NCBI GenBank assembly: GCA_964514375.1
Contig: CAZEQH010000004.1
Coordinates: forward strand, 191 to 64,190
Direction: 5' to 3'
DNA from: an uncultured Candidatus Saccharibacteria bacterium
GTDB lineage: Bacteria > Patescibacteriota > Minisyncoccia > Minisyncoccales > JANBVM01
Length of the DNA stretch: 64,000 bases
Every line of letters starts with the position of its first letter. Position 1 is the stretch's first letter. Shown here in pieces: positions 15,990 through 61,018 of the stretch. Position numbers and translations under genes: made by a program. Under the pieces are notes generated by a model, which made no database searches, was not told the origin of the DNA, and worked only from the letters and a program-made list of their open reading frames with translations.

Positions 15990-16332
15990 GGGGGTGTACA
16001 GATTCGACAGAGATGCAATCCAAAACATGCAAGTCGAGCCCAAAACTCGTAAAACTTTGGAAAACAAAACAATTGCCAATCTATTTGAAGGGCAACCCGC
16101 ATTAGCATTTGCTTAGTCTAATGCCATCTTCTCTGCCCATTCTCGATAAGCAGAGCAAGGTGTTATATCATCGAGAAAAAGAGTTCTTTGCGGTTCCGGG
16201 AGTTACTCCCGATAAACCGGACAGAAAGATTTTGCTCGGCTTCATACTTTCTGTCATGTTTCAAACCGAGACAAACTTGTAGACTGTTCTGGTGACCGTC
16301 CCTGGACAAGGGGGCAGTTCCCTTCATCTCCA
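15990..16332 (+). ncRNA. ssrA: tmRNA (SsrA), one-piece
   Basis: The 5' end GGGGGTGTACAGATTCGACAG pairs with the 3' end CATCTCC (acceptor stem, two G-U pairs), followed by discriminator A. The 3' architecture GGAC-AAGGG-GGCAGTT-CCCTT-CATCTCC-A parallels E. coli GGAC-GCGGG-UUCAACU-CCCGC-CAGCUCC-A. The internal tag ORF at 16075-16116, GCC AAT CTA TTT GAA GGG CAA CCC GCA TTA GCA TTT GCT TAG, encodes ANLFEGQPALAFA*. CCA is not encoded. Confidence 0.85.
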
Positions 16333-16339
16333 CAAAAAT

Positions 16340-16846
16340 TTGTTGAAGAAACCATTAATCAATAATCAAATAAGGACGGATAAGGTAAGGCTCATCGATA
16401 ATGACGGGACCCAGGTGGGAATTGTTACCTTAGAAGAAGCGCTCCGGAGGGCTAAGGAGCGCAATTTAGATTTAATCCAGGTAACAGGGAAGGTAAATCC
16501 GCCCGTCTGTAAGATAATGGACTACGGGAAGTATGTTTACAGGATGAAGAAAAGAGAAAAGAAGGCCAAGAAAAGTGTGGACATCAAGGGCATCAGATTG
16601 AGATATAACATATCGTCCCACGACCTGGAAACCCGTCTCCATCAGGCGGAAAAGTTTCTTAATGCAGGACACAAGGTAAAAGTGGAAATGCTTTTGAGAG
16701 GAAGGGAAAAAAGACTCGCTGATTTCGCCAGGGGAAAGACGGAAAAATTCATTCAAGACCTTAATGCAAAAATACCCGTCAAACAAGAAGGGAAATTATT
16801 AAAAAAAGGCAAGGGTTTTGTGGCCGTATTGGTAAAGGAGTCATAA
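16340..16846 (+). CDS. infC: Translation initiation factor IF-3
   Basis: KKPLINNQIRTDKVRLIDNDGTQVGIVTLEEALRRAKERNLDLIQV is a typical IF-3 N-domain. The track start (GTG 16292) would overlap the tmRNA 3' end, so the likelier start is the in-frame TTG at 16340 or 16343 (infC classically uses a non-AUG start). Confidence 0.8.
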   Translation: MLKKPLINNQIRTDKVRLIDNDGTQVGIVTLEEALRRAKERNLDLIQVTGKVNPPVCKIMDYGKYVYRMKKREKKAKKSVDIKGIRLRYNISSHDLETRLHQAEKFLNAGHKVKVEMLLRGREKRLADFARGKTEKFIQDLNAKIPVKQEGKLLKKGKGFVAVLVKES

Positions 16847-22174: not shown

Positions 22175-23221
22175 CTATCTTCGGAAATTAATAAGCTTGA
22201 CACCTTCTGTTTCCGTGGTAACCGGGAAAGAGGAAAAACCTTTTTCATTAAAAAGTTCAGAGAGAGCTTTTTCTCTTTTGTCATCCTCTGCCAATATTAT
22301 GCAGCAGCCTCCTCCCCATCCTCCGGTAGGTTTTGCCCCAAGGGCTCCGTTCTCGCGAGCCAGGGAAATTATCCTATCTAATTCGGGAGTGGAGATATGC
22401 AGCTTACTCAGTTCCTGATAATATTCCGTCATCAGCCCGCCAACCTTCCTTAGATTGTTTGTGGATAAAGCCGACAAAGCCTTTCGGGAAATTAAATCCA
22501 GGTCTTCCATTATCCGGCTCACCTGAGAGGGATTTTTTTCCCGCAGTTCTCTGACATAGGAAACCGTTTCTGAGGTCATGGCTTTCTGGCCGCTGTCCAC
22601 AATCAAAAGGGGCAGGCTAAAGTCAATTTTCATCCGCCTGATACCGCCGGATTTTCTGTAGGTAAGGTATCCTCCCCAGGTAACGGCGCTGTTATCGATA
22701 CCCGAAGGAGTTCCTCCATGTGCTATAATGTCTCCCCGGTAAGCGAATTCTGAAATCTCTCTCTCGGAGAGACTCTTACCCAAAAGTTTCAGGACTGCCG
22801 CGCTAATGGCAGAAAAAACGGCTGAGCTTGAACCCAGACTGTTGGGAATGTCAGAATCAATCTCAATATGTATACCATGAAAGGTGCGGTATTTTTTAAA
22901 AATCTCAGCTATTACAAAAAAACTCGGCGCAAGGTTATTTTGCGCCAGGTTTTCCTTTATTTTCTGAAAATCTCCGCTCTTCTCCCAAGCCCTTATCTCT
23001 TCTGCTTTCTGGAAAAGACCCTTCTCATCCAGGGAATCTTTAAACCCCAAACCATGGGAATCTATATCAATCCTTTCTTCCGACAGCAGCGACGCCTTAA
23101 CCCGGCATCTCCTGTCTATGCTGCAAACGATGCCTAATTTGTCATAAACAACGGCGTGTTCGCCAAAGAGAATAACCTTTCCGGGAGCTGAGGAAATAAC
23201 CATTTTATTGTGAAGAATCAA
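22175..23221 (-). CDS. mvk: Mevalonate kinase (GHMP kinase family)
   Basis: SAPGKVILFGEHAVVYDKLGIV at the N-terminus; GHMP ATP-binding motif PNSLGSSSAVFSA; C-terminal GAKPTGGWGGGC. Confidence 0.75.
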   Translation of the reverse strand: MILHNKMVISSAPGKVILFGEHAVVYDKLGIVCSIDRRCRVKASLLSEERIDIDSHGLGFKDSLDEKGLFQKAEEIRAWEKSGDFQKIKENLAQNNLAPSFFVIAEIFKKYRTFHGIHIEIDSDIPNSLGSSSAVFSAISAAVLKLLGKSLSEREISEFAYRGDIIAHGGTPSGIDNSAVTWGGYLTYRKSGGIRRMKIDFSLPLLIVDSGQKAMTSETVSYVRELREKNPSQVSRIMEDLDLISRKALSALSTNNLRKVGGLMTEYYQELSKLHISTPELDRIISLARENGALGAKPTGGWGGGCCIILAEDDKREKALSELFNEKGFSSFPVTTETEGVKLINFRR

Positions 23222-23996
23222 AATTTTCCCTTAAAAATTGAGAGATTTGGCGGCCGGTTAATGATTCCCAGGTATATTCGTGCCCCGGCACCTGAATAGA
23301 GCGGGCAAAAGAAATATTTGTTCCGCAAAGCTTGGCCGAAATCACTCTGAAAGGGGCTTTAATAAGAGATATTAACAAATTGGATACCTTCCTGTCGGCC
23401 AAGGAATCCTGCCCGTTGTTATCTAAAAAAAGAACGTTATCTGCCTGTAAAGGTTTTTCCCAAAAAGGCGTGCCTACCTCTACGGCCAATATTTTGCTTC
23501 CTTCCGCCTGCGGTATCTTTTCTATTATTTGATTGCTAAAAGCGGCACCATTGGAAAGACCGGTAATAATTATCCTCTCTTCCGGGTTTTTAACCAGATG
23601 GAGTTCTAATTGTTCCGCCAGTGCGGAAGATTGGGAATAAAAGGAGGAAAGAAGGCTTTTCAGTCCGGTAATCTTGCCAAGGAAACTATTTTCGGTCCTC
23701 TTATAGGGAATCACTATCGGATTGTAATCCATTTTCTCAAAGGTCTCTTGGATACCCGATAAAATAGATTTGAAATCGTTCGCCTCTTGAGGAGGCGTAT
23801 AACCCCATCCTCCTGAATTAAAAACGATTATCACGCGCTTGGGAGTAATCTCGTTCAGCTGAGCTACGAAATCGGCATTGTCGGGAAATTTATTGGGGGC
23901 TAAGATAAAGACGAGAACCGCTGCCGCCGCCAAGATTGTTAGAGTTTTTTTTAACTTTCCCATATTTTGGGTTCTTATGCCGGGGACTTTATTCAA
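23205..23996 (-). CDS. Membrane-anchored alpha/beta-hydrolase-like protein
   Basis: N-terminal anchor (LTILAAAAVLVFIL) and a possible nucleophile elbow, IITGLSNGAAF (GxSxG). The start may be the internal Met at 23963. Function unknown. Confidence 0.4.
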   Translation of the reverse strand: MNKVPGIRTQNMGKLKKTLTILAAAAVLVFILAPNKFPDNADFVAQLNEITPKRVIIVFNSGGWGYTPPQEANDFKSILSGIQETFEKMDYNPIVIPYKRTENSFLGKITGLKSLLSSFYSQSSALAEQLELHLVKNPEERIIITGLSNGAAFSNQIIEKIPQAEGSKILAVEVGTPFWEKPLQADNVLFLDNNGQDSLADRKVSNLLISLIKAPFRVISAKLCGTNISFARSIQVPGHEYTWESLTGRQISQFLRENFDSSQ

Positions 23997-26208: not shown

Positions 26209-27243
26209 ATGATTACAATCGACGGTTCCAAAATGGAAGGAGGAGGACAGATTTTGAGAACCTCCCTCGCCCTGGCCTCAAGTTTAAGACAGTCCTGCGA
26301 AGTTTCTCATATAAGGGAAGGAAGGGAAAAACCCGGCCTCATGCCTCAGCACTTGTCGGCCTTAAAGGCGGCGGCTGAATTGTGCGGAGGGGAGGTAAAG
26401 GGGGATTTCCTGGGAAGCAGGACGATACAGTTTTTTCCCGGCGCCTCTACAGAAAAATCTCTGACCATTAAGCTGGAAACGGCGGCCAGCATTCCTTTAA
26501 TAATGCAGGCCCTAATACTCCCCAGTCTTGTGTCTTCTTCTCCTGTTTCTATAAGTGTCAGAGGGGGGGCTACCGACACCTTCTTTGCCCCGTCATGGGA
26601 TTTCTTCCAGCATGTATTTCTAAAAATATTGGAAAGGATGGGAGCTGAGATAGAAGTGGAAACTAAAAAAAGGGGTTATTTTCCGGAAGGCGGTGCGGAA
26701 ATCATTTTGAAAATCCATCCCTCTTCTTTGAAAATTCGTTCCCTTACTAAAAGAGGGGAATTGACGAAAATATCGGTTTTTTCGGGAGCATCTTCTTCTC
26801 TACGGGAAAGAAAGGTAGCCGAACGCCAGATTACGGGAGCCAGAAGTGTGCTAGACAAGCTGAAAGGTTTTCCCGTACATACAGACATTAGGTATTACCA
26901 AACAGAATCCCCCGGCAGTCATATTTGCCTGGCGGCAGAATTCACCGGCACGGTTCTGGGGACAGATGTTCTGGGAACCCTGGGTAAAAGAGCTGAGGAC
27001 GTGGGACGGGAAGCTGCATCCAACTTACTGGAAGAAGAAAAAAATGGCGCCTGCCTGGATAAACATCTGACAGACCAGGCCCTTCCCTTTCTTGCCCTGC
27101 ATCCAAAAAAAATCGAGGTCAAGACCTCGCAAATTACCAGCCACGCCAGGACTAATATGTGGGTGATTGAAAAATTTATAAAAGGAAAATTCGAAACGCG
27201 GGAAAATAACATTACCTGGCTGCCGCTACAATCTAATCAGTGA
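26209..27243 (+). CDS. rtcA: RNA 3'-terminal phosphate cyclase RtcA
   Basis: IDGSKMEGGGQILRTSLALASSL at the N-terminus and the length (344 aa) are typical of RtcA. Confidence 0.8.
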   Translation: MITIDGSKMEGGGQILRTSLALASSLRQSCEVSHIREGREKPGLMPQHLSALKAAAELCGGEVKGDFLGSRTIQFFPGASTEKSLTIKLETAASIPLIMQALILPSLVSSSPVSISVRGGATDTFFAPSWDFFQHVFLKILERMGAEIEVETKKRGYFPEGGAEIILKIHPSSLKIRSLTKRGELTKISVFSGASSSLRERKVAERQITGARSVLDKLKGFPVHTDIRYYQTESPGSHICLAAEFTGTVLGTDVLGTLGKRAEDVGREAASNLLEEEKNGACLDKHLTDQALPFLALHPKKIEVKTSQITSHARTNMWVIEKFIKGKFETRENNITWLPLQSNQ

Positions 27244-27245
27244 AT

Positions 27246-28220
27246 TCAGATAGACTTATGCAAAGAAATGTTAGACCATTTCCCGCATCGGTCCCCCCAG
27301 CGCGCCATGGTTTTTCCTTCCATCTTTGCTTCTATAACTTCGCAGTGATTCGGACACCCGTCGCACTGGAAAGAAGTGCACTGGACGTCTTTATCTGAAA
27401 CCTCAAAGCCTAAAAATTTTGTTTTATCGGGAGCGGCTTCTTCAACCAGAAGAGCTGCTCCAAATGCCCCCATAACAGTATTATAAGAAGGGACAATAAT
27501 TTCCTGCTGCAAGGCATCTTCAAAGGCCTTCCTCATTCCTATGTTTTGAGAAACTCCTCCCAGGAAAACTATAGGAGCACTGACGTTCTTGCCTTTAGCT
27601 ACATTAGCTAAAAAATTCCTCGCCAGACCCTGGCATAAACCAGCGACAATATCCTCCACCCTGTGCCCTATCTGCTGTTTATGAATCATGTCGGACTCAC
27701 AAAAGACCGTACACCTAGAGCCGATGTTGGTCGGCTTTTTAGATTTTAAAGACAGACCTCCAAATTGTTCTATGGGTATTTTCAGCCGGAAGGCCTGAGC
27801 GTCGAGGAAAGACCCCGTGCCGGCTGCACAAATCAGGTTCATGGCAAAATCCACCGCTACACCATTGTCCAGAATAATAATCTTGGAATCCTGACCTCCT
27901 ATCTCTATGATAGTCCTGACGTCCGGCACCACGAAAGACGTGCCTTTGGCATGGGCTGTAATTTCGTTCTTAACCAAGTCCGCTCCTGTAATGACTCCGG
28001 CTAGATAGCGTGCAGAACCCGTAGTCCCCACGCCCACTATATCAACGTCCATGTCATTACTTTTAAGATAATCGTGCAGGTGTTTAAGCCCCTTCTGGAC
28101 AGCGCCGATGGGGTTGCCTTCCGTTCTCCTGTACAGATGATATAGTATCTTCCCGTCCGGGTCTATTAAGACCAGCTTAGTAGAAATGGAACCTACGTCT
28201 ATACCTAAATAAGTCTTCAT
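27246..28220 (-). CDS. BcrA/BadF/HgdC-type ATPase (CoA-substrate-specific enzyme activase-like) with a Cys-rich C-terminal extension
   Basis: ASKHA-fold N-terminus YLGIDVGSISTKLVLID, then GVGTTGSARY, ICAAGTGSFLD, SRCTVFCESDM and FLGGVSQN. The C-terminus is CTSFQCDGCPNHCEV...WGDRCGKW. Confidence 0.7.
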   Translation of the reverse strand: MKTYLGIDVGSISTKLVLIDPDGKILYHLYRRTEGNPIGAVQKGLKHLHDYLKSNDMDVDIVGVGTTGSARYLAGVITGADLVKNEITAHAKGTSFVVPDVRTIIEIGGQDSKIIILDNGVAVDFAMNLICAAGTGSFLDAQAFRLKIPIEQFGGLSLKSKKPTNIGSRCTVFCESDMIHKQQIGHRVEDIVAGLCQGLARNFLANVAKGKNVSAPIVFLGGVSQNIGMRKAFEDALQQEIIVPSYNTVMGAFGAALLVEEAAPDKTKFLGFEVSDKDVQCTSFQCDGCPNHCEVIEAKMEGKTMARWGDRCGKWSNISLHKSI

Positions 28221-29308
28221 GATAAACTTTGGCGATTATACTTCTTATGATGGTTTTTGACAACATCCACGAAGGCCTCCAGCCTGGTATCAATACCCGC
28301 TTCAGCCACCTGTTCGTCCAGAGAAAGAGATAAAAAAGGAATGTTTTTTTCCTTATGGATGTTCTCCAAGATAGGCCTTACCGTTACTTCAGGCATGCAG
28401 CCGAACGGCAGCAGGTGAACGACCCCGTCAAACTTTTTCTCTGCATAATCCAGCATCTCATAAATAGCGTCCCTGCCGTGGCCTCCAACGGTGGATTTCA
28501 AATAGGGATTTATCTTCCGCTGGATAACCCAATCCTTCCAGGGAAAAATTATCTTCTGAATATGATAAGTAACGTCCATTTCACGATGAACCTCAATGCC
28601 TTCTTTCCCCAGCTTTCTCTCCACTCCAAAATTGATATGAGGATCGCTCACGGTATATATCTCTCCTATAATGCCCACCCTAGGTACGGATTTATTCTTA
28701 TCAACCTTGATCTTAAGCAGTTTTTTCCCTATTTCAGTTTCAAGGCTCGACAATTCTTCCGGCCGATCCGCTCTTTCCATCCTGGCTAAAAAATAATCTA
28801 CTAATTTATCCGTTTCTCCGGCCTGAATTTCCCGCGGCCGATAATACTGGGCCTTTCTATCCACCTTTTCTACAAGCCATAGTTTTTTGAAAAAGATTCT
28901 GGCAGCCCTGAAAATCTGTGAAAAGGAAGCTCCGGAAACGCTTTTTACTTTCTTATAAATATTCTTGGGCGTTATCTTAAGGTCAATGAAATCAATATCC
29001 CAACCGTTTTCCTTGAGAATCTTATTCTGTATGGCTCCATAATACCTTTGTCGGCAGGATCCTCCTACGTTTTGTACCATAAAAATGGTGTTGGCTCCTT
29101 TTCTTAAGGCAGGTAAGTAGTTTCCGATAGTGGCTTTCATGGGAAAACAAAACATGTCTGGAACCAACTTAGCTCCCTCAGAAACGGTCCTGGGGTTAGT
29201 TTTTTCGGGGGGGATAACTTCCAAGCCCAATTGTTCAAAAAGGGTTTTGAAGGCTACGGTATAATTGCCCCAGCCGGCAAAAGTAACTATGGTTTTTTCT
29301 CTGGGCAT
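28217..29308 (-). CDS. 2-hydroxyacyl-CoA dehydratase/activase-associated subunit-like protein (second component)
   Basis: Resembles the C-terminal module of the large fused CoA-enzyme-activase proteins. It ends in DEQVAEAGIDTRLEAFVDVV, paralogous to the upstream gene's terminus. The start is set at ATG 29308 (MPREKTIVTFAGWGNY), 4 nt after the upstream stop, rather than the track start at 29380, which would overlap by 68 nt. Confidence 0.5.
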   Translation of the reverse strand: MPREKTIVTFAGWGNYTVAFKTLFEQLGLEVIPPEKTNPRTVSEGAKLVPDMFCFPMKATIGNYLPALRKGANTIFMVQNVGGSCRQRYYGAIQNKILKENGWDIDFIDLKITPKNIYKKVKSVSGASFSQIFRAARIFFKKLWLVEKVDRKAQYYRPREIQAGETDKLVDYFLARMERADRPEELSSLETEIGKKLLKIKVDKNKSVPRVGIIGEIYTVSDPHINFGVERKLGKEGIEVHREMDVTYHIQKIIFPWKDWVIQRKINPYLKSTVGGHGRDAIYEMLDYAEKKFDGVVHLLPFGCMPEVTVRPILENIHKEKNIPFLSLSLDEQVAEAGIDTRLEAFVDVVKNHHKKYNRQSLS

Positions 29309-29312
29309 AATA

Positions 29313-30230
29313 TTAATGGAGGGTATCCACGAAAGCCTCCAGCCTGGTTTGAAGGCCCGCTTCTCCCGTATGTTCGTCAATAATCAAATAAAGAAAAGGG
29401 GTTTTTCTTTTTTTAAATTCTCCTTCCACCATCTCTTTAATGACGCCGTCGCATCCGCATTGAAAAGAGGATATTTCCACTCCTCCCGTAATATTATATT
29501 TAAAGATTTCCCTGATTTTTTCAACTATTTCCTCGGCAAATTCCCAATGGAAATCCACTTCGGACAAGTCGCCGGCAGCACCCTTTCTTTTGGGTAAAAA
29601 TTTACGATGTCTGACCGGCACTTCTTCCAGCATAAGCGGCTGAACTCCCAACCGGAGAAGTTTCTCTTCGGTTCTCAGATTTACATAGGTATCATACAGA
29701 TTGTAGGGATGGGAAATTAAAATAATCTTAGGCTTTTTAGACGCCAGTTTTTTAAAAAATTTTTCCTCTTTTTTCAGCTCTTCTCTTTTTTCCTTTAAAA
29801 GTGAGTCCCTCAGCGCCGCCTTGACGTCTTGGACATTTTTATCAAGTTGAGCGCCCAGCTGCTCCAGGCTTTTCTGAAAAGACCTTTTCTTTTGGTCTAA
29901 GGTGCAGGTCAGTATGGGCGTAGTCACAAGAATTTGAGCCAGGTCCGGCAAACCGAAAAATTTCGGACAGTATTCCAGTTTTATTTCGTTGGTTTTAAGC
30001 CGTGGAACAAAGATTAAATCACATTTCTTGTCCAACCACATAAGGTGGCCCCAATACACCTTATTGGAGAAACATGTTTCCGGGTCTGCCTTCTTCACCC
30101 CCATCTCCACTATCTCTCTGTTGGTGGCGGGAGAAAGCAAGACCTCAAAACCCAGATTCTTGAAAAAACCCTCCCAGAAAAGTGGTCTCTTCCAATAAAC
30201 TAAAGCTTTAGGAATGCCTATAGTAACCAT
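29313..30230 (-). CDS. DUF2229-like CoA-enzyme-activase-associated protein (first component)
   Basis: N-terminus IGIPKALVYWKRPLFWEGFFKNLGFEVLLSPATN...ETCFSNKVYWGH is typical of the uncharacterised domain fused to BcrA/HgdC-type activases. The C-terminus is DEHTGEAGLQTRLEAFVDTL. Confidence 0.5.
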   Translation of the reverse strand: MVTIGIPKALVYWKRPLFWEGFFKNLGFEVLLSPATNREIVEMGVKKADPETCFSNKVYWGHLMWLDKKCDLIFVPRLKTNEIKLEYCPKFFGLPDLAQILVTTPILTCTLDQKKRSFQKSLEQLGAQLDKNVQDVKAALRDSLLKEKREELKKEEKFFKKLASKKPKIILISHPYNLYDTYVNLRTEEKLLRLGVQPLMLEEVPVRHRKFLPKRKGAAGDLSEVDFHWEFAEEIVEKIREIFKYNITGGVEISSFQCGCDGVIKEMVEGEFKKRKTPFLYLIIDEHTGEAGLQTRLEAFVDTLH

Positions 30231-33203: not shown

Positions 33204-33908
33204 TTATTTCAGCGCCAGCTTTCTGGCTACGATATAGGTATTCTGGCGGGTTTCCCGCTGGTTCTCCGCTATCCCTAATTTTACCACTCTGAAGCCTGCT
33301 TTTTCCAGAGCGTCTCTTAGTTCCTTCCCGTAAAAATAATGATAATATCTCTCCGTCCTATCTCCCCAGGGCACCAGTATGTCTCCCCAATCCAGCTCTG
33401 ATTTCCTAATTACTTTTAGCCAGGTATACTTAAGTAACAGCATAAGCTCGCGGAAACGGTTAAATCTCCATACCGTCAGCACTAAAAGACCCTTATTTTT
33501 CAACACCCTCTGCGCCTCCTTTAGGAATTTTAATCTAAGCTGACGGGAAGGAATCTGATGGAATACGGCAACACTGAAAATCTTGTCAAAAAATTCATTA
33601 GGAAAAGAAAGTTCCAAGGCATCCTCTACAAAAAAATTGGCTTCGGGAAATTTTTTCCTGGCAATCTCAATCAGTGCTTCCGAATTATCCCCTCCAAAGT
33701 AAACCACCCCTTCTCTCTGAAAGAATGGATAATATCGTCCATTACCGCATCCCAAATCCAAAACCTTATCTCCGGGTTCGAGATACTCTTCAAATAAAAA
33801 TTTTGTTTCCGGCCAGGGGCTTTTCCGAGTTCTTGAAAAATCCTTGGCTATCAAGGTATAATCCTGTTTAGTCTTCCCGAGAAGATACCTTGCATATTCT
33901 TCTTGCAT
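33204..33908 (-). CDS. Class I SAM-dependent methyltransferase, Trm9-like (candidate tRNA mcm5U34 methyltransferase)
   Basis: SAM motif VLDLGCGNGRY, plus three stretches that match my recollection of yeast Trm9: IAKDFSRTRKSPWPE (Trm9 IAPHFSQTRYKPWP), DILVPW (DVFVPW) and ERYYHYFYGKELRDALEKAGF (YRYYHLYREGELAEDCRQAG). Confidence 0.6.
   Translation of the reverse strand: MQEEYARYLLGKTKQDYTLIAKDFSRTRKSPWPETKFLFEEYLEPGDKVLDLGCGNGRYYPFFQREGVVYFGGDNSEALIEIARKKFPEANFFVEDALELSFPNEFFDKIFSVAVFHQIPSRQLRLKFLKEAQRVLKNKGLLVLTVWRFNRFRELMLLLKYTWLKVIRKSELDWGDILVPWGDRTERYYHYFYGKELRDALEKAGFRVVKLGIAENQRETRQNTYIVARKLALK
33833..33862 (+). promoter_or_regulatory. Sigma-70-like promoter for elp3, embedded in the methyltransferase coding region
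   Basis: TTGAAA (33833-33838), 18-nt spacer, TATAAT (33857-33862), about 45 nt upstream of the elp3 ATG. Confidence 0.45.
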
Positions 33909-35540
33909 ATGAAATCAGAATATTTAATTCTAAAGGATTTATCCAACCACCAAAAAGAGGCTCGCAGCAACCTCCATGCCTTTAAGAGAAAAATGGCTAA
34001 AAAGTACCAGATTCCTTTTCCCAGCAACTTCCAGCTGTTAAGAGCTTATCATAATATTAGGAAAGAGAAAAGAATCAAGAAAATAGAAGGCATAAACCGC
34101 CTGCTTAGAACGCGGCCTGTACGCTCGCTTTCCGGTATTGTTAATGTCTCTGTACTGACCAAACCCTATCCTTGTCCCGGCAAATGCATCTTCTGTCCCC
34201 AAGAAGAGGGAATACCTAAGAGCTATCTCTCCGGAGAGCCCGCAGTAGAAAGGGCGAAAGAATTGGACTATCAGCCCTATAAACAGACCAGGAAAAGGCT
34301 GGAAACGCTGAAGGACCAGGGGCATCCGGGTGATAAAATAGGACTCAGAATAATCGGAGGGACGTGGTCTTTCTATCCTAAACGATATCAAAGCTGGTTT
34401 ATGAAGCAGTGTTTTGACGGCTGTAACGGCAAGATAAGCAAAACCTTGAGGGCGGCGCAAAGATTTAATGAAAGTTCCCGCCGCCGAATCGTTGAATTGT
34501 CTGTTGAAACCAGACCGGATTTCATCGATGAGAAGGAAGCGAAAAGAATGAGAAAACTCGGCGTTACCAAAGTAGAAATGGGGGCTCAAAGCCTTTCCGA
34601 CCGCGTTTTAACACTAAACCAAAGGGGGCATAATGTCAAAGCCCTTATAGACGCCACCAGGCTGCTGAAGGACGCGGGTTTTAAGGTCTCCTATCAGATG
34701 ATGCTGAACCTGCCCGGCTCGACCCCCGCGGAAGACATTAAAACTTTTGAAAGGTTATTTGACAATGCTTCTTTCAGGCCGGACTCCTTAAAGATTTATC
34801 CCTGCGCCCTGCTCAAGGAATCCCGTCTTTTTCAATGGTATTTGAAGGGAAGATATAAACCCTATACGGAAAAAACTCTGATTAACGTTATAAAATCAAT
34901 AAAAACTAAGATTCCTTATTACGTCAGGATAGAAAGGGTAATCCGGGATATACCCGCTCCCAGGATAGCGGCAGGTCCGGCTAAAGTATCGAATTTAAGA
35001 CAACTAGTTGAAGAAGAAATGAAGAAGGAAAAAAAAGACTGCAGATGCATCAGGTGCCGTGAGATAAAGAACAGGTACTGCCTCTCAGAAAAAGCTGAGT
35101 TGCATCGGCATGATTACCAGGCCTCATTGGGCAGGGAAATATTTTTGAGTTTTGAAGACAGGAAAAGAAGAAAACTTTACAGCCTCTTAAGGATGAGAAT
35201 CCCTTCATGGGTTTCCTCTAATCTGGAAAGTGAATCCCGACAAGCCCGCGGCCACAAGGGAAAATTATTCCTTCCTGTTTTAAAAAACTCGGCCCTCATA
35301 AGAGAAATCCATACTTATGGCCAAATGGTTCCCATAGATAAAAAAAGAACTGCTCCCCAGCACAAAGGATTAGGTCAGAAGCTGCTGAAAGCTGCTGAAA
35401 GAGTAGCAAGGGAAGAATTCGGTCTGCCCAGGATAGCTGTCATCTCGGGTGTCGGAGCCCGCAACTATTATCGAAAGAACGGATACCGCTTAAGTTCCAC
35501 CTATATGGTAAAAAACCTCTGTGAAAGAGGTTCTCTATAA
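33909..35540 (+). CDS. elp3: Elp3-type radical SAM / GNAT acetyltransferase (tRNA U34 carboxymethylation enzyme homologue)
   Basis: RTRPVRSLSGIVNVSVLTKPYPCPGKCIFCP (Elp3 radical-SAM cluster site), EMGAQSLSD, and a C-terminal GNAT segment QHKGLGQKLLKAAERVAREEFG. The ATG at 33909 is preferred over the track's TTG at 33903. Confidence 0.8.
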   Translation: MKSEYLILKDLSNHQKEARSNLHAFKRKMAKKYQIPFPSNFQLLRAYHNIRKEKRIKKIEGINRLLRTRPVRSLSGIVNVSVLTKPYPCPGKCIFCPQEEGIPKSYLSGEPAVERAKELDYQPYKQTRKRLETLKDQGHPGDKIGLRIIGGTWSFYPKRYQSWFMKQCFDGCNGKISKTLRAAQRFNESSRRRIVELSVETRPDFIDEKEAKRMRKLGVTKVEMGAQSLSDRVLTLNQRGHNVKALIDATRLLKDAGFKVSYQMMLNLPGSTPAEDIKTFERLFDNASFRPDSLKIYPCALLKESRLFQWYLKGRYKPYTEKTLINVIKSIKTKIPYYVRIERVIRDIPAPRIAAGPAKVSNLRQLVEEEMKKEKKDCRCIRCREIKNRYCLSEKAELHRHDYQASLGREIFLSFEDRKRRKLYSLLRMRIPSWVSSNLESESRQARGHKGKLFLPVLKNSALIREIHTYGQMVPIDKKRTAPQHKGLGQKLLKAAERVAREEFGLPRIAVISGVGARNYYRKNGYRLSSTYMVKNLCERGSL

Positions 35541-35563: not shown

Positions 35564-36457
35564 TTAAATAACGAATTTGACCGCCAGGTACCCCAGAATG
35601 GAGAAAAAAGCAATGGGCGGCAGGGCAGGAATAGGATTCCTTCTTTTCTGGAAAGCAAAAAAATAAAAGCTGGCCAAAAGCCCCATCACCGAAAACAGGG
35701 CCACGATAAGGGTTTTAGTAATGCCGAATGAAGGAACCAGAGAACAGCACAGGAATAACGGAAAAACTATGTCACCACCTCCTAAAATAAGGAATTTTCC
35801 CCCGGGCTTTAATTCTTCCAGGCGCTCCTGGAAACCCAAGATACTTCGGGGTATTATCAACCCTAGAATCGCCCTGCTTTCTATCATTTGTTTGGCCATT
35901 TCCACCATGTGTTTGGTTTTATAGACCGCCACAACATCGTATACAGAGAAAACTATCAAGAGGGCTACTACTATTTCCGGCTTAAATGCCAGTCCTAAAA
36001 AACTCCCGGCTCCGGAAATCCCCAGTACGATACAGAGATCCTGGATAAAAACAGAGGGCCACAGCCACCACCAGGCTAAAAAAATTGTCATCAGGAAAAG
36101 TGCCGGCAGATAAGGAAACCAAACGCTCATCATAGAAATGCCCCCTAAAAAAACAGCTGCCACAAAAATCAGCTTAAAAATCAATCCCTTCTGTTTTCTA
36201 AACTTCACTAGTTGAATAATCAGAAGAACAAAAAGCGTAGTCAAAAGAAACTGGAGAATGAAATGCCAAAATGATATTTCAGGAATAGCCATATTTTGCT
36301 CCTTGAGAGTGGCGCTGATTTCAAGAGCGGTAAAAATACCCAGCAGTAAAGTGAGAGAAAAGAGGAATACTTCAATAATGAGAATTTTCCAAAAAGGTTT
36401 TAGAAAAGAAAGCTCTTCATCAACCTCCAGCTGGCGATTATTTGTCTCTTCTGCCAT
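35564..36457 (-). CDS. Presenilin/signal-peptide-peptidase-like GxGD intramembrane aspartyl protease (peptidase A22 family-like)
   Basis: Polytopic membrane protein with the three family signatures in canonical order: FSVYDVVAVY (YD), FLILGGGDIVFP (GxGD) and NPIPALPPIAF (PAL). Confidence 0.65.
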   Translation of the reverse strand: MAEETNNRQLEVDEELSFLKPFWKILIIEVFLFSLTLLLGIFTALEISATLKEQNMAIPEISFWHFILQFLLTTLFVLLIIQLVKFRKQKGLIFKLIFVAAVFLGGISMMSVWFPYLPALFLMTIFLAWWWLWPSVFIQDLCIVLGISGAGSFLGLAFKPEIVVALLIVFSVYDVVAVYKTKHMVEMAKQMIESRAILGLIIPRSILGFQERLEELKPGGKFLILGGGDIVFPLFLCCSLVPSFGITKTLIVALFSVMGLLASFYFFAFQKRRNPIPALPPIAFFSILGYLAVKFVI

Positions 36458-36566: not shown

Positions 36567-37547
36567 CTATTTTCTTGACACCCTTATCAGTCCGGAACAC
36601 GGAACAATCGCAATATTCCTTTTTTCCAATTCATCCAGGAAAAGATTTACCCCTAGGGAGTCTGAACTCATATGGCCGGCTATCACCACGTTGATATTGG
36701 CCGTTTCTGCCTCCTTCTTGTGCTCTTCCGAGATATGCATTCCTACAACGGTGCCGATGCCGGCGATGGCCATTTTTTCGTATAATTTCGGAGAACCCTC
36801 CGTGCCTCCTGTTATTTCAGTGATGGCTATTTTACCGCATCTGTTGTCTTTTTTTCCTACAAAAATCTTGGGTCCTGCTCCAAGCTCAGCAGCTCTTTGG
36901 TATTCCGGAATTTCTTCTAAAAGGCGGATGAGGTCGCTGAGTCTCATTAAGCCGTCTTTTTTGTCAATTTTCCTCTTCAGAAAATTAGCGGCCAGATTAT
37001 CACAGACTGTATGGAGGCACATTAGATTGAATCCGAGAAGCCTGGCTGCATCAACGGCCCTCTGATGGTTAAGTTTGTTCACCCCGCGAGCTACTTCTGA
37101 TATCCTTTCCCGCATCAATCCCTCAGCCACGTTGATAGGCACGCCGTACTGGTGAAGCACGTCGCACTGCAGTTCCATTACCTCGTGAAGACTGGCTAAA
37201 GCCTTCCCTAAAGGGTGGTGGGAGATAATAAGGTCTATCCCGCCAAGCTCCTTAGCTAAAATGATTTCAGCTGTATCTATGTCTATACCCGTCAAAACCT
37301 TCTTGATTTCCTTATTCTCGGTAATATTCAAAATCCTGGAATCCAGGTAAGGATTTTCAAGCGCTTCTTTATCGAAGTGCCTTTTCTGATATTCAGACAT
37401 TTTTTCAAAAGCTTCTTTCTTCCTATCTAAAATTATCTTTACGCTCTCGCGCCCCCTGAAATCGTTATCTATGGCCTTATCAATTGCCAGCCTGTATATC
37501 TCTTTTACTCTCATATGTCTTAAGGAGTTTCTTATATAATCCCTCAA
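36567..37547 (-). CDS. NIF3 (DUF34)-family dinuclear-metal-centre-like protein
   Basis: GIDLIISHHPLGKAL and a C-terminal VVIAGHMSSDSLG resemble NIF3-family metal-ligand motifs. The N-terminal region is atypical. Confidence 0.45.
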   Translation of the reverse strand: MRDYIRNSLRHMRVKEIYRLAIDKAIDNDFRGRESVKIILDRKKEAFEKMSEYQKRHFDKEALENPYLDSRILNITENKEIKKVLTGIDIDTAEIILAKELGGIDLIISHHPLGKALASLHEVMELQCDVLHQYGVPINVAEGLMRERISEVARGVNKLNHQRAVDAARLLGFNLMCLHTVCDNLAANFLKRKIDKKDGLMRLSDLIRLLEEIPEYQRAAELGAGPKIFVGKKDNRCGKIAITEITGGTEGSPKLYEKMAIAGIGTVVGMHISEEHKKEAETANINVVIAGHMSSDSLGVNLFLDELEKRNIAIVPCSGLIRVSRK

Positions 37548-37714: not shown

Positions 37715-39181
37715 TCACTCTCCCTTAATCACCGCTAAGGGTTTTAAAATTGCGACTTTTTTAGAAAGACCGGCTTTACTCACCACCTCTATCACTTCGT
37801 CTATGTCTTTATAAGCAAGAGGAGCTTCCTCGGATATACCTCTCAAGCTGTGACATTTTATAATTACCCCCTTTTGTTCTAACCTTTTTATTACTTCTTG
37901 TCCAGAAATCCGTCTCTGGGCTTCTCTCCGCGACATGGTCCTGCCGGCGCCATGGCAGGTTGACCAAAAGCTTTCTGCCCCCTCCTTGATACCGGCCATC
38001 ACATAAGATGCAGTGCCCATGGAACCCGGAATCAGAACCGGCTGGCCTACCGCGCGATATTGTTCAGGAATCTCTGGGCGGCCGGGAGGAAAAGACCTGG
38101 TAGCTCCTTTTCTATGAACACATAACTCCTCCTTCACCCCGCTTATCTCGTGCCCCTCTATCTTGGCAATATTGTGAGAAACATCATAAAGCATTCTGAG
38201 ATGTGCTTTCTCTCCCAGGACAGATGCCCAGGCCTTCCTGATATAATAAGCTATCATCTGTCTGTTGGCCCAGGCATAGTTTGCCCCGCAGGCCATAGCA
38301 GAAAAATATCTCTTCCCCTCCAGAGAATCTAAAGGACAGCAAGCCAGCTCCCGATCTGGTAAAATGATGCGGTATTTAGCCATAACATCCATCATTGTCT
38401 TAATATAGTCTGTGGCAATTTGGTGTCCTAAACCCCGGGAACCGGTATGTATCATTACTACTACTTGACCTTCGAAAATACCGAAGGCGGATGCTGTTAC
38501 CTCATCAAAAATCTTTTCCACCTTTTGAATCTCGCAAAAATGATTTCCGGACCCCAGAGTACCCACCTGGTCCCTTCCCCTGTTCTTAGCCCTGGCGGAA
38601 ACGGCGGACGAATCCGCCGCGTGCCCAAATTCCCCCTCTTCTTCACAGTTGCTGATATCTTCATCGTTCCCAAAACCCTGTTTCACTAAATAAGCAGATC
38701 CCCCTTCCAATACTCTGTCTATGAAGTTTATGTCAAGCTTCTTCCGTCTTCCCTTCCCCAGACCCGAGGGTACTTCCGTCTGAATCATGGAGGCTAAAGC
38801 ATCCAAATATTTTCCCAATTCCCCTGCAGTATATTCTGACTTCAGCAGCCGCATCCCGCAATTTATATCATATCCCACACCTCCCGGAGATATCACCCCT
38901 TCGCTTACCCTCACTGCAGCCACGCCCCCTATGGGAAAGCCATAGCCTTCATGCATGTCCGGCATAGCTAAACTGTATCTTGCGATACCCGGCAGAGAAG
39001 CAACATTCACTAATTGATTCAGTGACCTGTCACGGAAAATCTCACCCATCATTCTGCCTCCAGTGTATATTCTCGCCGGCACTCTCATATCAGCCCTAAA
39101 ACTCTTTGGAATTTCCCAAACCCAGTCGGATATTTTATGCAGGGTTTCCCTTGAAATCATTTTTTTTGTTTTATATTGCAT
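37715..39181 (-). CDS. rtcB: RNA-splicing ligase RtcB (3'-phosphate/5'-hydroxyl RNA ligase)
   Basis: PDMHEGYGFPIGGVAA, GVGYDINCGMR, HTGSRGLGHQIATDY, SHNIAKIE, CHGAGR: the full set of RtcB metal- and GMP-binding motifs. Confidence 0.9.
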   Translation of the reverse strand: MQYKTKKMISRETLHKISDWVWEIPKSFRADMRVPARIYTGGRMMGEIFRDRSLNQLVNVASLPGIARYSLAMPDMHEGYGFPIGGVAAVRVSEGVISPGGVGYDINCGMRLLKSEYTAGELGKYLDALASMIQTEVPSGLGKGRRKKLDINFIDRVLEGGSAYLVKQGFGNDEDISNCEEEGEFGHAADSSAVSARAKNRGRDQVGTLGSGNHFCEIQKVEKIFDEVTASAFGIFEGQVVVMIHTGSRGLGHQIATDYIKTMMDVMAKYRIILPDRELACCPLDSLEGKRYFSAMACGANYAWANRQMIAYYIRKAWASVLGEKAHLRMLYDVSHNIAKIEGHEISGVKEELCVHRKGATRSFPPGRPEIPEQYRAVGQPVLIPGSMGTASYVMAGIKEGAESFWSTCHGAGRTMSRREAQRRISGQEVIKRLEQKGVIIKCHSLRGISEEAPLAYKDIDEVIEVVSKAGLSKKVAILKPLAVIKGE

Positions 39182-45226: not shown

Positions 45227-45595
45227 CTATCCCAAAACGTTCTTTATTTTTTCGATAATCTCCCCGGGAGTGAAGTGAGCCTTAATGAGATAGTCTGCGG
45301 CTCCCAGATTCAAACCCTTCTCAACTTCTTCCTTCTGGCCGAGATTGGAGAGAATAATAACGGGGATTGCGGAAACACTGTCGTCACTTTTAATAGTAGA
45401 CAGAACTTCGAAACCATCCATACTAGGAAGGATAAGGTCAAGCAGAATAAGGTCGGGCTGGGACTCTTTGACCTTATTAATGCCGTCTTCTCCGTCAACG
45501 GCCTGGGTAATGTCGTACCCTTCGTCGGTCAATTTCCTGGAAATAAGCTCTCTCAGGAATTTATCGTCCTCTATTATTAATATTTTTTTTGCCAT
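45227..45595 (-). CDS. Single-domain response regulator (receiver only)
   Basis: KILIIEDD...DLILLDLILPSMDGFEV...PVIILSN...K: a CheY-like receiver with no output domain (122 aa). Confidence 0.85.
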   Translation of the reverse strand: MAKKILIIEDDKFLRELISRKLTDEGYDITQAVDGEDGINKVKESQPDLILLDLILPSMDGFEVLSTIKSDDSVSAIPVIILSNLGQKEEVEKGLNLGAADYLIKAHFTPGEIIEKIKNVLG

Positions 45596-45610
45596 ATACC
45601 TTTTATGCGA

Positions 45611-45982
45611 TTATTTACCGATTTGTTTAACCACTTTTTCTATTACCTCTTGGGGATCAAACTCTGTTTTAATCAACCAGTCGCTGGCGCCCAGCTCCTT
45701 GGCCTTACCGAGTTCCACCGGCTGTCCAGAATTGGAAATAATTATAACCGGTATTCTCTTCAACTGGGCGTCCTTCTCCATTTCTTCCATCACTTCAAAT
45801 CCCCCCATTTTCGGCATAATGATGTCCAGTAAAATAATATCAGGCTTCAGTTCTTTCATTTTTTTCAATCCCTCCTCGCCATTGACCGATACCGTCACTT
45901 CATAACCCTCCTGTTCAAGCTTCTTTTCAAGCAGGTTAATCATAATCTTCTCGTCTTCAATTAGTAAAATTTTTTTAGCCAT
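45611..45982 (-). CDS. Single-domain response regulator (receiver only)
   Basis: KILLIEDE...DIILLDIIMPKMGGFEV...PVIIISN...K; 123 aa, a paralogue of the downstream receiver. Confidence 0.85.
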   Translation of the reverse strand: MAKKILLIEDEKIMINLLEKKLEQEGYEVTVSVNGEEGLKKMKELKPDIILLDIIMPKMGGFEVMEEMEKDAQLKRIPVIIISNSGQPVELGKAKELGASDWLIKTEFDPQEVIEKVVKQIGK

Positions 45983-50015: not shown

Positions 50016-51353
50016 ATGGATGGAATTTCAAAAAAAATAACGGGTGAGGTTAAAATACCTGTTGAGATTCTAAAGGATTCTCAGAAAAAGGTTAAGAATG
50101 TACCCGCCCTAAAGGAACACCTGGAAAAGTCTTTCCAGCAGAGGCTTACGGAAGTTGTGGAAATTCTTTTGGCGGGCGCCATTAACCTGAATGCCTCCGA
50201 TATTCACCTGGAACCCAAGGAGGAGAAATCAAAAATCAGGGTGAGGGTGGACGGACTTTTGCAGGAAGTAACCTCGTTGGAACGGGACCTTTACGAAAAA
50301 ATCGTTTCAAGAATAAAACTTCTTTCGGGTCTTAAATTGAATGTAAGTGATCGGCCTCAAGACGGCCGATTTTCTATTGGCGTCCCCGAAAATACGGAAA
50401 AAGCGATAACTAAATTTTTTACAGTGGAAGTAAGGACCTCGACCCTTCCCACTGAATATGGAGAAACCATAGTGCTTAGAATATTAAATCCCAAAAGCCT
50501 GATTAACCTGGAGGCCTTGGGTCTAAGAGAAGATTTATTCGCTCTGTTCAATAAGGAAATCAAAAGGCCGAATGGAATGATTATCGTAACGGGTCCTACA
50601 GGTTCGGGTAAAACAACCACCCTATACGCTTTCCTGAAGAGTATACAGAGCCCCGAGAACAAAGTGATAACTATTGAAGACCCTATAGAATATCATCTTA
50701 AAGGCATTTCCCAGACGCAGGTAAGTCCGGGAAAGGGGTATGATTTTGCTAATGGTTTGCGCTCTATTATGAGGCAGGACCCCGACGTGGTACTGGTGGG
50801 AGAAATAAGAGACTTGGAAACCGCCAGTATTGCTCTCCAGGCCGCCCTTACCGGGCATCTGGTCTTCTCAACCCTCCACACCAATGATGCTGCCGGGACA
50901 ATCGCCCGCCTGCAAGCTTTGGGAGAAAAATCGGCCAATATAGCGCCCGCTATCAATCTGGTTATAGCCCAGAGACTGGTAAGAAAAGTTTGCAAAGAGT
51001 GTTCTAAAAAAGAAAAGGTTTCTCCCGCCCATCTGAAGAAAATAAAAAAGGCCGTCAAGGGCCTGATTGGGAAAACGGATATTCCGAAGATAGATGCTTC
51101 CCTTGAAGTTCCCAAGGCTGTAGGATGCAAGGAGTGTAATTTTACCGGCTATCGGGGAAGAATGGGTGTCTATGAAGCTCTTACCATAGACGACCAGATG
51201 GAAAAATTCATATTGAATGTAGCTTCCATAGCCGCCTTGAGAGAAAAAGCTGCTGCTTTAGGCATGACTACTATGTATCAGGACGGAATCGTTAAAGTCT
51301 TGCATGGAATCACCACCCTGGAAGAAGTGGAGAGGGTGGTCGGAGAACAATAA
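50016..51353 (+). CDS. pilB: GspE/PilB-family type II/IV secretion (type IV pilus assembly) ATPase
   Basis: ASDIHLEP, Walker A GPTGSGKTTTLYA, Asp box, Walker B VLVGEIRD, His box TGHLVFSTLHTN, and a tetracysteine CKEC...CKEC. Confidence 0.85.
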   Translation: MDGISKKITGEVKIPVEILKDSQKKVKNVPALKEHLEKSFQQRLTEVVEILLAGAINLNASDIHLEPKEEKSKIRVRVDGLLQEVTSLERDLYEKIVSRIKLLSGLKLNVSDRPQDGRFSIGVPENTEKAITKFFTVEVRTSTLPTEYGETIVLRILNPKSLINLEALGLREDLFALFNKEIKRPNGMIIVTGPTGSGKTTTLYAFLKSIQSPENKVITIEDPIEYHLKGISQTQVSPGKGYDFANGLRSIMRQDPDVVLVGEIRDLETASIALQAALTGHLVFSTLHTNDAAGTIARLQALGEKSANIAPAINLVIAQRLVRKVCKECSKKEKVSPAHLKKIKKAVKGLIGKTDIPKIDASLEVPKAVGCKECNFTGYRGRMGVYEALTIDDQMEKFILNVASIAALREKAAALGMTTMYQDGIVKVLHGITTLEEVERVVGEQ

Positions 51354-51505: not shown

Positions 51506-52708
51506 ATGAAAAATTTGTCAAGAGATAGGTCTCCTATTTTCGGCTTTACGGCAGGATTAATCCTGCTTTTTATTTTTCTTCCCTTCAAAGCTAATGCTTT
51601 TTCTTTCCTAGACGTAGTTATTAATGAAATAGCCTGGATGGGGACATCTGTGTCGACTGCCGATGAATGGTTGGAACTGCATAATAACACAGATTTTTTC
51701 ATAGACGTCACCGGCTGGAAAATAGAAACCAGCGACGGCAGCCCGAATGTGGAGCTGTCAGGAAAAATTGGCCCTTCCGGTTTCTTTGTTATTGAAAGAA
51801 CAGACGATAATACTCTCCCTAATATTTCCGCCAATCAGATATATGCGGGTTCCCTGAACAATAAAGGGGAATATATAAAACTTTTGGACAAGGAAAACAA
51901 TCTGATAGACATGGTTGACTGCGATGACGGTTGGTTCGGCGGCGACAATGTTTCCAAGAAAACGATGGAAAGAAAAGTAAGTAATGGAAAAGGAATACCC
52001 GAAAACTGGCAGACTTCTCTTTTTGAAGCCGGGACCCCGGGCGAAGAGAACAGTACGCTGCCATACGACGAAGACGTTTCTGGGGCCAATGCTTTTTCTA
52101 TCGGAAATTTTATCATAACAGAAGTTCTCCCCTCCCCATCAGGCCAAGATGAAGAGGAAGAATGGATTGAACTTTTAAACCAGGATACTCGCCAGATAAA
52201 TCTCACAGGATGGAAGCTTACAGACCAAGCAGGTAGGACAAAAACATATTCTTTCGAAGAAAAAGTTTCGATAGAATCCGGCACATTTATCGTCTTGAGC
52301 CGCCGGCAAACGGGCATCACCTTGAATAATGAAGGAGACGGTCTTTATCTGATGGCGCCTAACGGTAAAATAGCTGACCGTATGGATTATGGAAAAGCAC
52401 CTATGGGAAAATCTTATGCCTTAATCGACGGGGATTGGATGTGGAACTCTTCGCCGACGCCGGGAGGAAAAAATGTAAACATACCTACGGAAGAGGGTGG
52501 GGTTGAAACAAATACCTTTATGGAAGAAGAAAAAGTGCCGCATCAGCCTGTCAGGAAAGAGGAAGTCAGTCCAGGACAGACGGGCGATAAATCCAATAAT
52601 TCTGTATTTATTAAAACGCTCCTGGCCGCCTCCCTTACTTCTGTGATTTCCGGCGCAGTTTTTTTTGTCTGGAAAAATTTCCTGAAGAAAGCCATTTTAG
52701 AAACTTAA
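51506..52708 (+). CDS. Secreted, C-terminally anchored protein with two lamin-tail domains (LTD)
   Basis: Signal peptide ending FKANA. Two LTD-like modules (VVINEIAWMGT...DEWLELHNNTDFFIDVTGWKI; FIITEVLPSPSG...EEWIELLNQDTRQINLTGWKL). C-terminal TM helix. Confidence 0.65.
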   Translation: MKNLSRDRSPIFGFTAGLILLFIFLPFKANAFSFLDVVINEIAWMGTSVSTADEWLELHNNTDFFIDVTGWKIETSDGSPNVELSGKIGPSGFFVIERTDDNTLPNISANQIYAGSLNNKGEYIKLLDKENNLIDMVDCDDGWFGGDNVSKKTMERKVSNGKGIPENWQTSLFEAGTPGEENSTLPYDEDVSGANAFSIGNFIITEVLPSPSGQDEEEEWIELLNQDTRQINLTGWKLTDQAGRTKTYSFEEKVSIESGTFIVLSRRQTGITLNNEGDGLYLMAPNGKIADRMDYGKAPMGKSYALIDGDWMWNSSPTPGGKNVNIPTEEGGVETNTFMEEEKVPHQPVRKEEVSPGQTGDKSNNSVFIKTLLAASLTSVISGAVFFVWKNFLKKAILET

Positions 52709-60992: not shown

Positions 60993-61018
60993 AAACCCCC
61001 TCCAATGAGGGGCTTTTT
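60993..61018. terminator. Bidirectional intrinsic terminator between jag and the VirB4-like gene
   Basis: AAACCCCCTC-caat-GAGGGGCTTTTT. Confidence 0.65.

Follow-up and report, generated by a model that had tools for sequence, protein, structure and literature searches.

A probable stand-alone presenilin-type intramembrane aspartyl protease encoded by a bacterium of the candidate phyla radiation

Presenilin is the membrane-embedded protease familiar from Alzheimer's research, and the proteases of its family are commonly introduced as enzymes of eukaryotes and archaea. To our knowledge the only tractable stand-alone model is PSH of a methanogen, an enzyme without a known natural substrate. A gene on the minus strand of contig CAZEQH010000004.1 (35564..36457, in coordinates of the 64,000-nucleotide stretch analyzed here, which we call the window) raises the question of what a protein of this kind is, and what it might do, in a bacterium of the candidate phyla radiation (CPR). 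The reading developed below is that the gene encodes a stand-alone presenilin-type intramembrane aspartyl protease of family PF06550 (MEROPS A22) that is predicted to be catalytically competent, and we put the probability of this reading at roughly 0.8. That the protein is an active protease of the A22 family, stated in these general terms, is a prediction that we consider very likely to hold. What such an enzyme would cleave, and to what end, can be addressed more tentatively from its orientation in the membrane, its genomic surroundings and its distribution.

The open reading frame (ORF) starts with ATG and specifies 297 residues, and its product is polytopic, as had been stated in the original prediction made from the sequence: Kyte-Doolittle hydropathy gives nine hydrophobic segments, and an AlphaFold2 model gives nine transmembrane (TM) helices. 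That prediction had also named three A22 motifs in their canonical order. All three strings are there and in order, FSVYDVVAVY at residues 170-179, LILGGGDIVFP at 223-233 and PIPALPP at 275-281, but the conserved minimum of the first is YD rather than VYD, V172 being isoleucine in most homologues. On the minus strand, the codons for Y173-D174, which include the first catalytic aspartate in TM6 (helix 160-180), lie at 35936..35941, those for G226-G-G-D229, with the second catalytic aspartate at the start of TM7 after the β-strand 223-226, at 35771..35782, and those for the PAL or PALP motif P277-A-L-P-P281, ahead of TM9, at 35615..35629. An additional PAL at residues 118-120 (YLPALFLM) falls within TM4 and is a chance occurrence, the functional PAL being that at 277-279.

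Profile and sequence comparisons converge on a single family. The profile search that had been proposed as a check on the A22 assignment returned PF06550 ('Signal-peptide peptidase, presenilin aspartyl protease') with 70.2 bits against a gathering score of 23.9 (E=2.7e-19), the match spanning residues 36-292 and profile positions 9-276 of 283, and PF06550 stands alone, with no competing Pfam family on the 297-residue protein at E<=0.01. Among all PDB sequences the sole match is PSH of Methanoculleus marisnigri (4HYC/4HYD/4HYG/4Y6K), for which 4hyc_A gives E=1e-14 from the single sequence and 3e-19 from the family profile. As measures of sequence similarity, the PF06550 and 4hyc_A scores are far beyond chance. 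The 4hyc_A alignment sets D174 opposite PSH D162 and D229 opposite PSH D220, the two residues that form the catalytic pair of PSH (PMC9282858). A profile-profile alignment by HHalign between 40 CPR and 11 archaeal PSH sequences covers TM4-TM9 with 98.7% probability (E=2e-16), and in the PSH alignments GxGD corresponds to PSH G217-M-G-D220 and PALPP to PSH A-G-L-P-P.

Conservation of the putative active site points in the same direction. In 40 homologues that are 52-82% identical, Y173, D174, G226, G228, D229 and the whole of P277-A-L-P-P281 are invariant, as are K180, T181, K182, H183 and M184 (40/40). More divergent members, represented by 145 clusters defined at 50% identity and reaching down to ~28% identity with the query, keep the first aspartate in 143 cases, G-x-G-D in 143 and [P/A]-A-L-P in ~140, so that, to judge from the aligned residues, the catalytic motifs are kept in ~99% of divergent members. 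Near-invariance of the aspartate pair, the glycines and PAL over so deep a radiation argues for an active site that is maintained, and it counts against a pseudoenzyme. It bears directly on the alternative that the protein has the presenilin fold and a non-proteolytic function, for instance as an ion-leak channel or a scaffold. A protease-independent role as a Ca2+ leak channel has been proposed for presenilins, and the searchable literature yielded no activity data for CPR members, both of which would leave room for such a function. However, pseudoenzymes normally lose their catalytic residues, and the essentially invariant aspartate pair, GxGD glycines and PAL (143/145 in the divergent set; 40/40 in the closer one) make a purely non-proteolytic role very improbable. 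Hundreds of lineages show strong purifying selection on the nine-TM fold, the motifs and the elements between TM6 and TM7.

The predicted structure provides a physical context for these motifs. The AlphaFold2 model, computed from the 40-sequence alignment (mean pLDDT 88.4, pTM 0.86), has its helices at 19-53, 63-83, 87-113, 116-132, 136-157, 160-180, 227-239/241-268 and 279-296, together with a short helix at 182-193 and β-strands at 199-202 and 223-226. YD lies on TM6, GxGD opens TM7 (strand 223-226, then helix 227-239) and PALPP stands ahead of helix 279-296; the topology anticipated for an A22 protease, nine TM helices with YD and GxGD on adjacent ones, is thus what the model displays. D174 sits ~six residues before TM6 ends on the cytoplasmic side, and D229 ~six residues after the cytoplasmic start of TM7, which would place the two aspartates at matching depth on adjacent antiparallel helices. 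In active A22 enzymes the catalytic aspartates look at each other across a hydrophilic cavity, with Cγ-Cγ of roughly 7 Å or less; this matching depth, and the superposition of the whole chain on PSH, are indirect indications that D174 and D229 may be placed in this way. In the model, helix 182-193 is the counterpart of TMD6a, and strands 199-202 and 223-226 are that of the β element of human presenilin-1 (PS1) and PSH. TMD6a and β2 are functional elements of both PSH and PS1, and both enzymes hold substrate via the β element (PMC9282858). The cytoplasmic TM6-TM7 loop that contains most of these features, residues 180-220 (codons 35795..35918, minus strand), was delimited by conservation and AlphaFold2 secondary structure; it carries the invariant K-T-K-H-M at 180-184, the TM6a-like helix 182-193, the β-strand 199-202 and ~8 lysine and arginine residues.

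Comparison of the model with the PDB by Foldseek placed archaeal PSH first, the enzyme on which a superposition had been suggested, with TM-scores of 0.71-0.75 normalized on the target; human presenilin-1 in γ-secretase (0.60-0.67) and human SPPL2a (0.65-0.69) followed. Significant matches were confined to PSH, PS1 and SPPL2a, and no unrelated fold appeared below E ~0.1. The same comparisons speak to the possibility that the gene encodes a GxGD protease of the type IV prepilin peptidase or FlaK type (A24), which would process pilins. Enzymes of A24 are common in prokaryotes and, like the window protein, are polytopic membrane proteins with GxGD and a di-aspartyl mechanism; CPR bacteria have type IV pili, and the window encodes a T2SSE/PilB ATPase at 50016-51353. 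However, YD, PAL and the nine-TM architecture are features of A22, and A24 enzymes have no PAL motif. The aspartates of type IV prepilin peptidases are in soluble loops, several TM domains apart and not on adjacent TM6 and TM7, and cleavage takes place outside the bilayer (PMC2947513). With no A24 Pfam match at E<=0.01 and no prepilin peptidase or FlaK structure among the Foldseek matches, we rejected the assignment to A24, whose probability we regard as vanishingly small.

Within A22 the protein most resembles PSH (MCMJR1; 4HYC, 4HYG, 4Y6K; NF041679), its best structural match. Both are stand-alone PF06550 proteins of ~300 residues with nine TM helices, a TM6a helix, a β element and a predicted cytoplasmic N terminus (N-in), and YD, GxGD and the following KHM box align residue for residue. 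They differ in that identity is only 21-31%, the host of the window protein is bacterial, the window protein carries the canonical P-A-L-P-P where PSH has A-G-L-P-P, and its N-terminal half (TM1-3) is not alignable with that of PSH by HHalign. Human presenilin-1 (6IDF, 6IYC, 8OQZ) agrees with the window protein in fold, in all three motifs (PALP among them) and in orientation, but identity to it is 16-17%, the window protein has no PF01080 match, and its TM6-7 loop has only 43 residues, in place of the long cytosolic loop with an endoproteolysis site. Eukaryotic signal peptide peptidase (SPP) and SPPL2a (A22B, PF04258; 9K92) likewise share GxGD, YD, PAL and the nine-TM core, and some close homologues of the window protein carry a precomputed PF04258 match. 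The window protein itself has no PF04258 match at E<=0.01, is 16% identical, and is predicted to be N-in, whereas eukaryotic SPP is N-out. Since PSH works alone (PMC2947513), partners corresponding to nicastrin, APH-1 and PEN-2 are not expected.

The predicted orientation derives from the distribution of charge. With loops set by the model helices, lysine plus arginine on the N-terminus and loops 2-3, 4-5, 6-7 and 8-9 averages 18.0 against 2.2 on the other side, and the bias is present in 40/40 sequences. It recurs in 151/151 sequences when the set includes archaeal PSHs (15.6 against 1.9), and counting short loops only gives 6.0 against 1.8. A positive-inside bias of this kind indicates an N-in/C-out protein with a cytoplasmic TM6-7 loop. 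By the positive-inside rule, then, the orientation would be of the presenilin type and opposite to that of eukaryotic SPP. Presenilin-oriented enzymes cleave type I (N-out/C-in) helices, while SPP-oriented enzymes cleave type II helices, for example signal peptides; the predicted substrates are therefore of type I rather than signal peptides, a preference suggested by analogy with presenilin and PSH. Proteins of this class exist in the same genome. A Lamin-tail-domain protein encoded at 51506-52708 on the plus strand, adjoining the PilB-type ATPase gene (50016-51353), combines two Lamin-tail domains with a Sec signal peptide (…FKANA|FS), and behind its C-terminal TM helix stands a KNFLKK tail. 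The layout is that of a classic surface protein with a type I anchor. We cite it solely to illustrate the predicted substrate class; nothing connects this particular protein with the protease.

Taken with the structures of its relatives, the model suggests how the enzyme could act. A single-span helix would enter from the side, between TM2, TM6 and TM9, the portion of it nearest the cytoplasm would pair with the β element of the TM6-7 loop, and a water molecule activated between D174 and D229 would hydrolyze the peptide bond within the bilayer near the cytoplasmic leaflet. The enzyme would work without cofactor subunits, accepting type I helices as substrates, and its role might be to clear membrane-anchor stubs and short-ectodomain type I proteins from the Sec-dependent surface proteome rather than to act as a dedicated signaling switch. 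A constitutive, export-related housekeeping role is suggested because the gene is single-copy, is retained in genomes of ~0.65 Mb and lies in the arrangement secY-PSH-adk in a sister clade. We offer both the type I stub substrates and the housekeeping role as a tentative proposal by analogy, possible but falling short of an even chance.

The main alternative to this role is that the protein is a signal-peptide peptidase that clears type II Sec signal peptides, as SppA/RseP or eukaryotic SPP do, and it draws on the same sister clade. In that divergent group (P0309, P0381, P0373 and relatives) the PSH gene sits inside the spc ribosomal-protein operon directly between secY and adk. The order …S5-L15-SecY-PSH-Adk-(Adk)-Map-RuvX-RecO is found in L083, L084 and L089, where the PSH genes are at L083:10001-10840, L084:5163-6041 and L089:6001-6906, and further loci of this clade are L093, L094, L100, L103-L105, L113, L116 and L170. 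A metagenome scan added ~18 secY-PSH-adk loci, with adk less than 60 nt after PSH in all of them and secY usually 80-500 nt upstream. These operons lack an L30 gene between S5 and L15, a typical CPR trait. Within the 64-kb window no gene for SppA, RseP or a rhomboid is present, which is weak evidence because the window makes up ~10% of the genome. Archaeal members of the family have been predicted as candidate signal-peptide peptidases (PMC8305020, PMC9263693). However, the presenilin orientation holds in 151/151 sequences, and it is the opposite, SPP orientation that admits type II helices; moreover, the window's own clade is without the secY link. We consider a signal-peptide peptidase unlikely on this balance, while regarding it as the most serious competitor. 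SppA (S49) and RseP (an M50 site-2 protease) are possible functional analogues of the window protein in that they clear signal peptides or TM remnants, and they differ from it in being serine and metalloproteases of unrelated folds.

Several observations weigh against the view of the gene as a competent presenilin-type protease that cleaves type I helices. The single NCBIfam match is the archaeal PSH equivalog NF041679 (IMP_arch_presen) at 84.4 bits with a cut-off of 125, a score that, on this curated criterion, leaves the protein within the family and outside the PSH orthologues. The rule that links orientation to substrate type derives from eukaryotic enzymes. RtcB, NIF3 and Elp3, the neighbors of the window protease, are RNA enzymes and silent on secretion, and secY adjacency occurs in a clade different from that of the window gene. 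For CPR members, the searchable literature yielded nothing on activity, substrates or expression, and the native substrates of archaeal PSH have not been identified to date (PMC2947513, PMC10679502).

The immediate neighborhood of the gene raises a further possibility. As had been predicted, the gene is convergent to elp3: the neighbor (33903..35540, plus strand) is a true Elp3, a radical SAM/GNAT tRNA-modification enzyme, by TIGR01211 (520.9 bits against a cut-off of 350), and 23 nt separate the two stop codons. Beyond Elp3 lie a class I methyltransferase gene (33204-33908) and a tRNA-Arg gene. On the other side the minus strand carries RtcB, NIF3-like and PSH in that order, with the NIF3/DUF34-like gene (36567..37547; PF01784) directly upstream of the protease across a 109-nt spacer and the RtcB RNA ligase (37715..39181; PF01139, 566 bits) upstream of it in the co-directional string. 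In a set of 87 related loci, the strand of the protease carries NIF3 upstream of it in 55 cases, RtcB in 42 and DUF763 in 36, and Elp3 lies downstream in convergent orientation in 50. DUF763, where it occurs in those 36 loci (for example L086:5875-6996), is directly upstream of the protease, a position it does not occupy in the window; archease is found upstream of RtcB in L082:1-277. The order RtcB-NIF3-(DUF763)-PSH|Elp3 is kept across many Paceibacteria.

Such an arrangement could be taken to mean that the enzyme is a regulatory protease (regulated intramembrane proteolysis) coupled to its neighbors, for example by freeing a membrane-tethered factor that controls RtcB/archease and Elp3. The co-directional string Archease-RtcB-NIF3-(DUF763)-PSH with convergent Elp3 is present in 42-55 of the 87 loci, and members with no more than 29-31% identity to the query still show the association: in L085 (~31%) PSH, archease and RtcB are packed head to tail, and in L086 (29%) DUF763-PSH is convergent with Elp3 and a methyltransferase. 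NIF3 and PSH are also not separated by a convincing terminator, although a scan for promoters and terminators around the gene yielded no more than shuffled sequence did. Against coupling, other clades of the family place the gene in wholly different contexts. In addition to secY-adk, these include epimerase-PSH-small ORFs near L21/RecR/DnaB; PSH followed by a β-CASP (RNase J-like) RNase and then LonA, with a Mur ligase before; and, in another clade, a glycosyltransferase neighborhood. No membrane-tethered regulator is encoded beside the protease, and the one archaeal PSH neighborhood that was compared is unrelated. Since contexts differ among clades, the linkage is not family-wide, and the simplest account is conserved synteny in small, slowly rearranging genomes; a regulatory coupling to the RNA enzymes is accordingly improbable in our estimation, and a housekeeping role in clearing type I stubs remains the reading that we tentatively prefer.

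How widely the enzyme is distributed bears on how it should be viewed in bacteria. A word-indexed search returned 789 proteins, all PF06550, several of which already bear the names 'presenilin family intramembrane aspartyl protease' (NCBI) or 'presenilin-like A22 family membrane protease' (JGI). In a scan of one genome per GTDB species, relatives are encoded in 354 genomes, and the best 80 of these 354 are all labeled CPR or unclassified bacteria save for one Bacillota contig; they include three complete Nealsonbacteria chromosomes of 640-690 kb. The Bacillota-labeled contig, L012 (QLUR01000047.1), encodes a protein 56% identical to the target and is probably a mis-binned or mislabeled CPR contig, because all other close matches are CPR. 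A HMMER search over 1.84 billion cluster representatives (clusters at 50% identity) gave 956 clusters at E<=1e-3, 395 at E<=1e-10 and 124 at E<=1e-30, and the best 150 of the 956 representatives are all nearer to the query than PSH is. The closest named relatives of the target protein belong to Candidatus Nealsonbacteria, Paceibacterales and the 'Patescibacteria group', and the named deep branches are Uhrbacteria, the Parcubacteria group and 'bacterium HR34'. The nearest genome locus, L001 from a Patescibacteria metagenome-assembled genome, shows 82% identity and full synteny. The window gene belongs to a large CPR-specific subfamily of PF06550. The family had been described in the original prediction as uncommon in bacteria, which is fair for bacteria overall; in CPR of the Paceibacteria type, however, the gene is conserved, core-like and lineage-wide, given its presence in 354 species genomes.

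No paper tying presenilin to CPR or Patescibacteria was found in the searchable literature, a scope that leaves Raut, Glass & Lieberman 2021 (Proteins 89:232) outside, and the matches for presenilin together with CPR were mouse gut-microbiome studies of Alzheimer's disease. The size of the subfamily, its canonical PALP, its presenilin-like orientation and the secY-adk clade appear to be undescribed within that same scope. The family, fold, motifs and mechanism were already known, and the gene is correctly labeled by the NCBI and JGI pipelines, so that the finding should strike a specialist as solid rather than surprising.

As to the evolutionary origin of the CPR branch, in a neighbor-joining tree, computed without an outgroup and with archaeal sampling limited to Methanomicrobiales, the 145 representatives form one star-like radiation joined by a long branch (0.26) to the Methanomicrobiales PSHs. 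A search seeded with PSH recovered Methanomicrobiales only, and a profile mixed from CPR and archaeal sequences recovered the same two groups only. In the secY-adk, epimerase/L21/RecR/DnaB and β-CASP RNase/LonA contexts all neighbors are bacterial genes. The deep star-like radiation within CPR and the lineage-specific, purely bacterial contexts count against a recent acquisition. The window does have RNA-repair and tRNA-modification genes within 13 kb around the protease, namely the RtcA cyclase (26209-27243, plus), RtcB (37715-39181, minus) and Elp3 (33903-35540, plus), and RtcA, RtcB with archease, and Elp3 are typical of archaea and eukaryotes. Transfer of PSH en bloc with RtcB, archease and Elp3 as an archaeal island is weakened as an explanation by the one archaeal locus that was compared, that of Methanoculleus chikugoensis PSH, whose neighborhood has none of these genes and no gene in common with any CPR context. 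A bolder idea, which we regard as doubtful, is that an ancient and vertically maintained CPR branch of presenilins serves as a general Sec-associated clean-up protease that replaces or complements RseP and SppA. If so, presenilin-type proteolysis would be a housekeeping process in a major bacterial radiation, and either the presenilin family would predate the split of archaea and bacteria or an old transfer from archaea to CPR would have become fixed in minimal genomes.

One consequence of the breadth of this subfamily is practical. Structural and mechanistic studies gain several hundred additional orthologues, small and cofactor-free (354 or more species genomes, ~950 clusters at 50% identity, a canonical PALP), and, given the very small proteomes of their hosts, the natural substrates of a presenilin-type enzyme might here be enumerable. 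A genomic hint of a connection with protein export comes from the secY-PSH-adk arrangement. These results leave the mechanism of the family as it was understood before; the annotation is sound, and it may prove useful as a supply of simple presenilin models for which the substrates to be searched are few.

The remaining content of the window places the gene in its host. A tmRNA gene (15990-16335, plus strand), together with dnaA/dnaN, RecO, RuvC and other markers, identifies the window as bacterial; PBP1, a Mur ligase, UvrB, the DNA polymerase III delta subunit and YidC are encoded as well. The host is a member of the CPR (Patescibacteria) of the Paceibacteria (Parcubacteria) type, close to Nealsonbacteria. 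A chromosomal origin-type region comprises dnaN (56424-57548, minus), dnaA (57680-59032, minus), yidC (59796-60533, plus) and a gene for a Jag/KhpB-like R3H protein (60511-60972, plus), and is directly adjoined by a gene for a TraG/VirB4-like P-loop ATPase (61017-62822, minus).

Other genes of the window merit mention in their own right. The ORF for IF3 (16292-16846, plus) has its called GTG start at 16292 and overlaps the tmRNA gene; since the IF3_N domain begins at residue 23 of the ORF, translation of IF3 probably starts beyond the tmRNA, perhaps from a non-canonical codon. The isoleucyl-tRNA synthetase (8868-12377, minus; 1169 residues) contains a complete His_Phos_1 domain (PF00300) at residues 493-654, and a histidine-phosphatase domain inside the catalytic domain of a class I synthetase is an unusual insertion. 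Genes for HMG-CoA reductase (14131-15342, minus) and a GHMP-family kinase (22175-23221, minus), a candidate mevalonate or phosphomevalonate kinase, suggest that the window's CPR bacterium has mevalonate-pathway genes. Four ORFs of 186-263 residues have no Pfam match at E<=0.01 (23205-23996, minus; 8294-8890, minus; 45345-45905, plus; 62824-63465, minus), and the one of 263 residues has a single N-terminal TM or signal-like segment. Finally, 27246-30230 (minus) encodes a BcrAD/BadFG-type ATPase and then two DUF2229/HGD-D proteins, a cluster resembling 2-hydroxyacyl-CoA-dehydratase activase that is unexpected for the genome of a metabolically minimal CPR bacterium.

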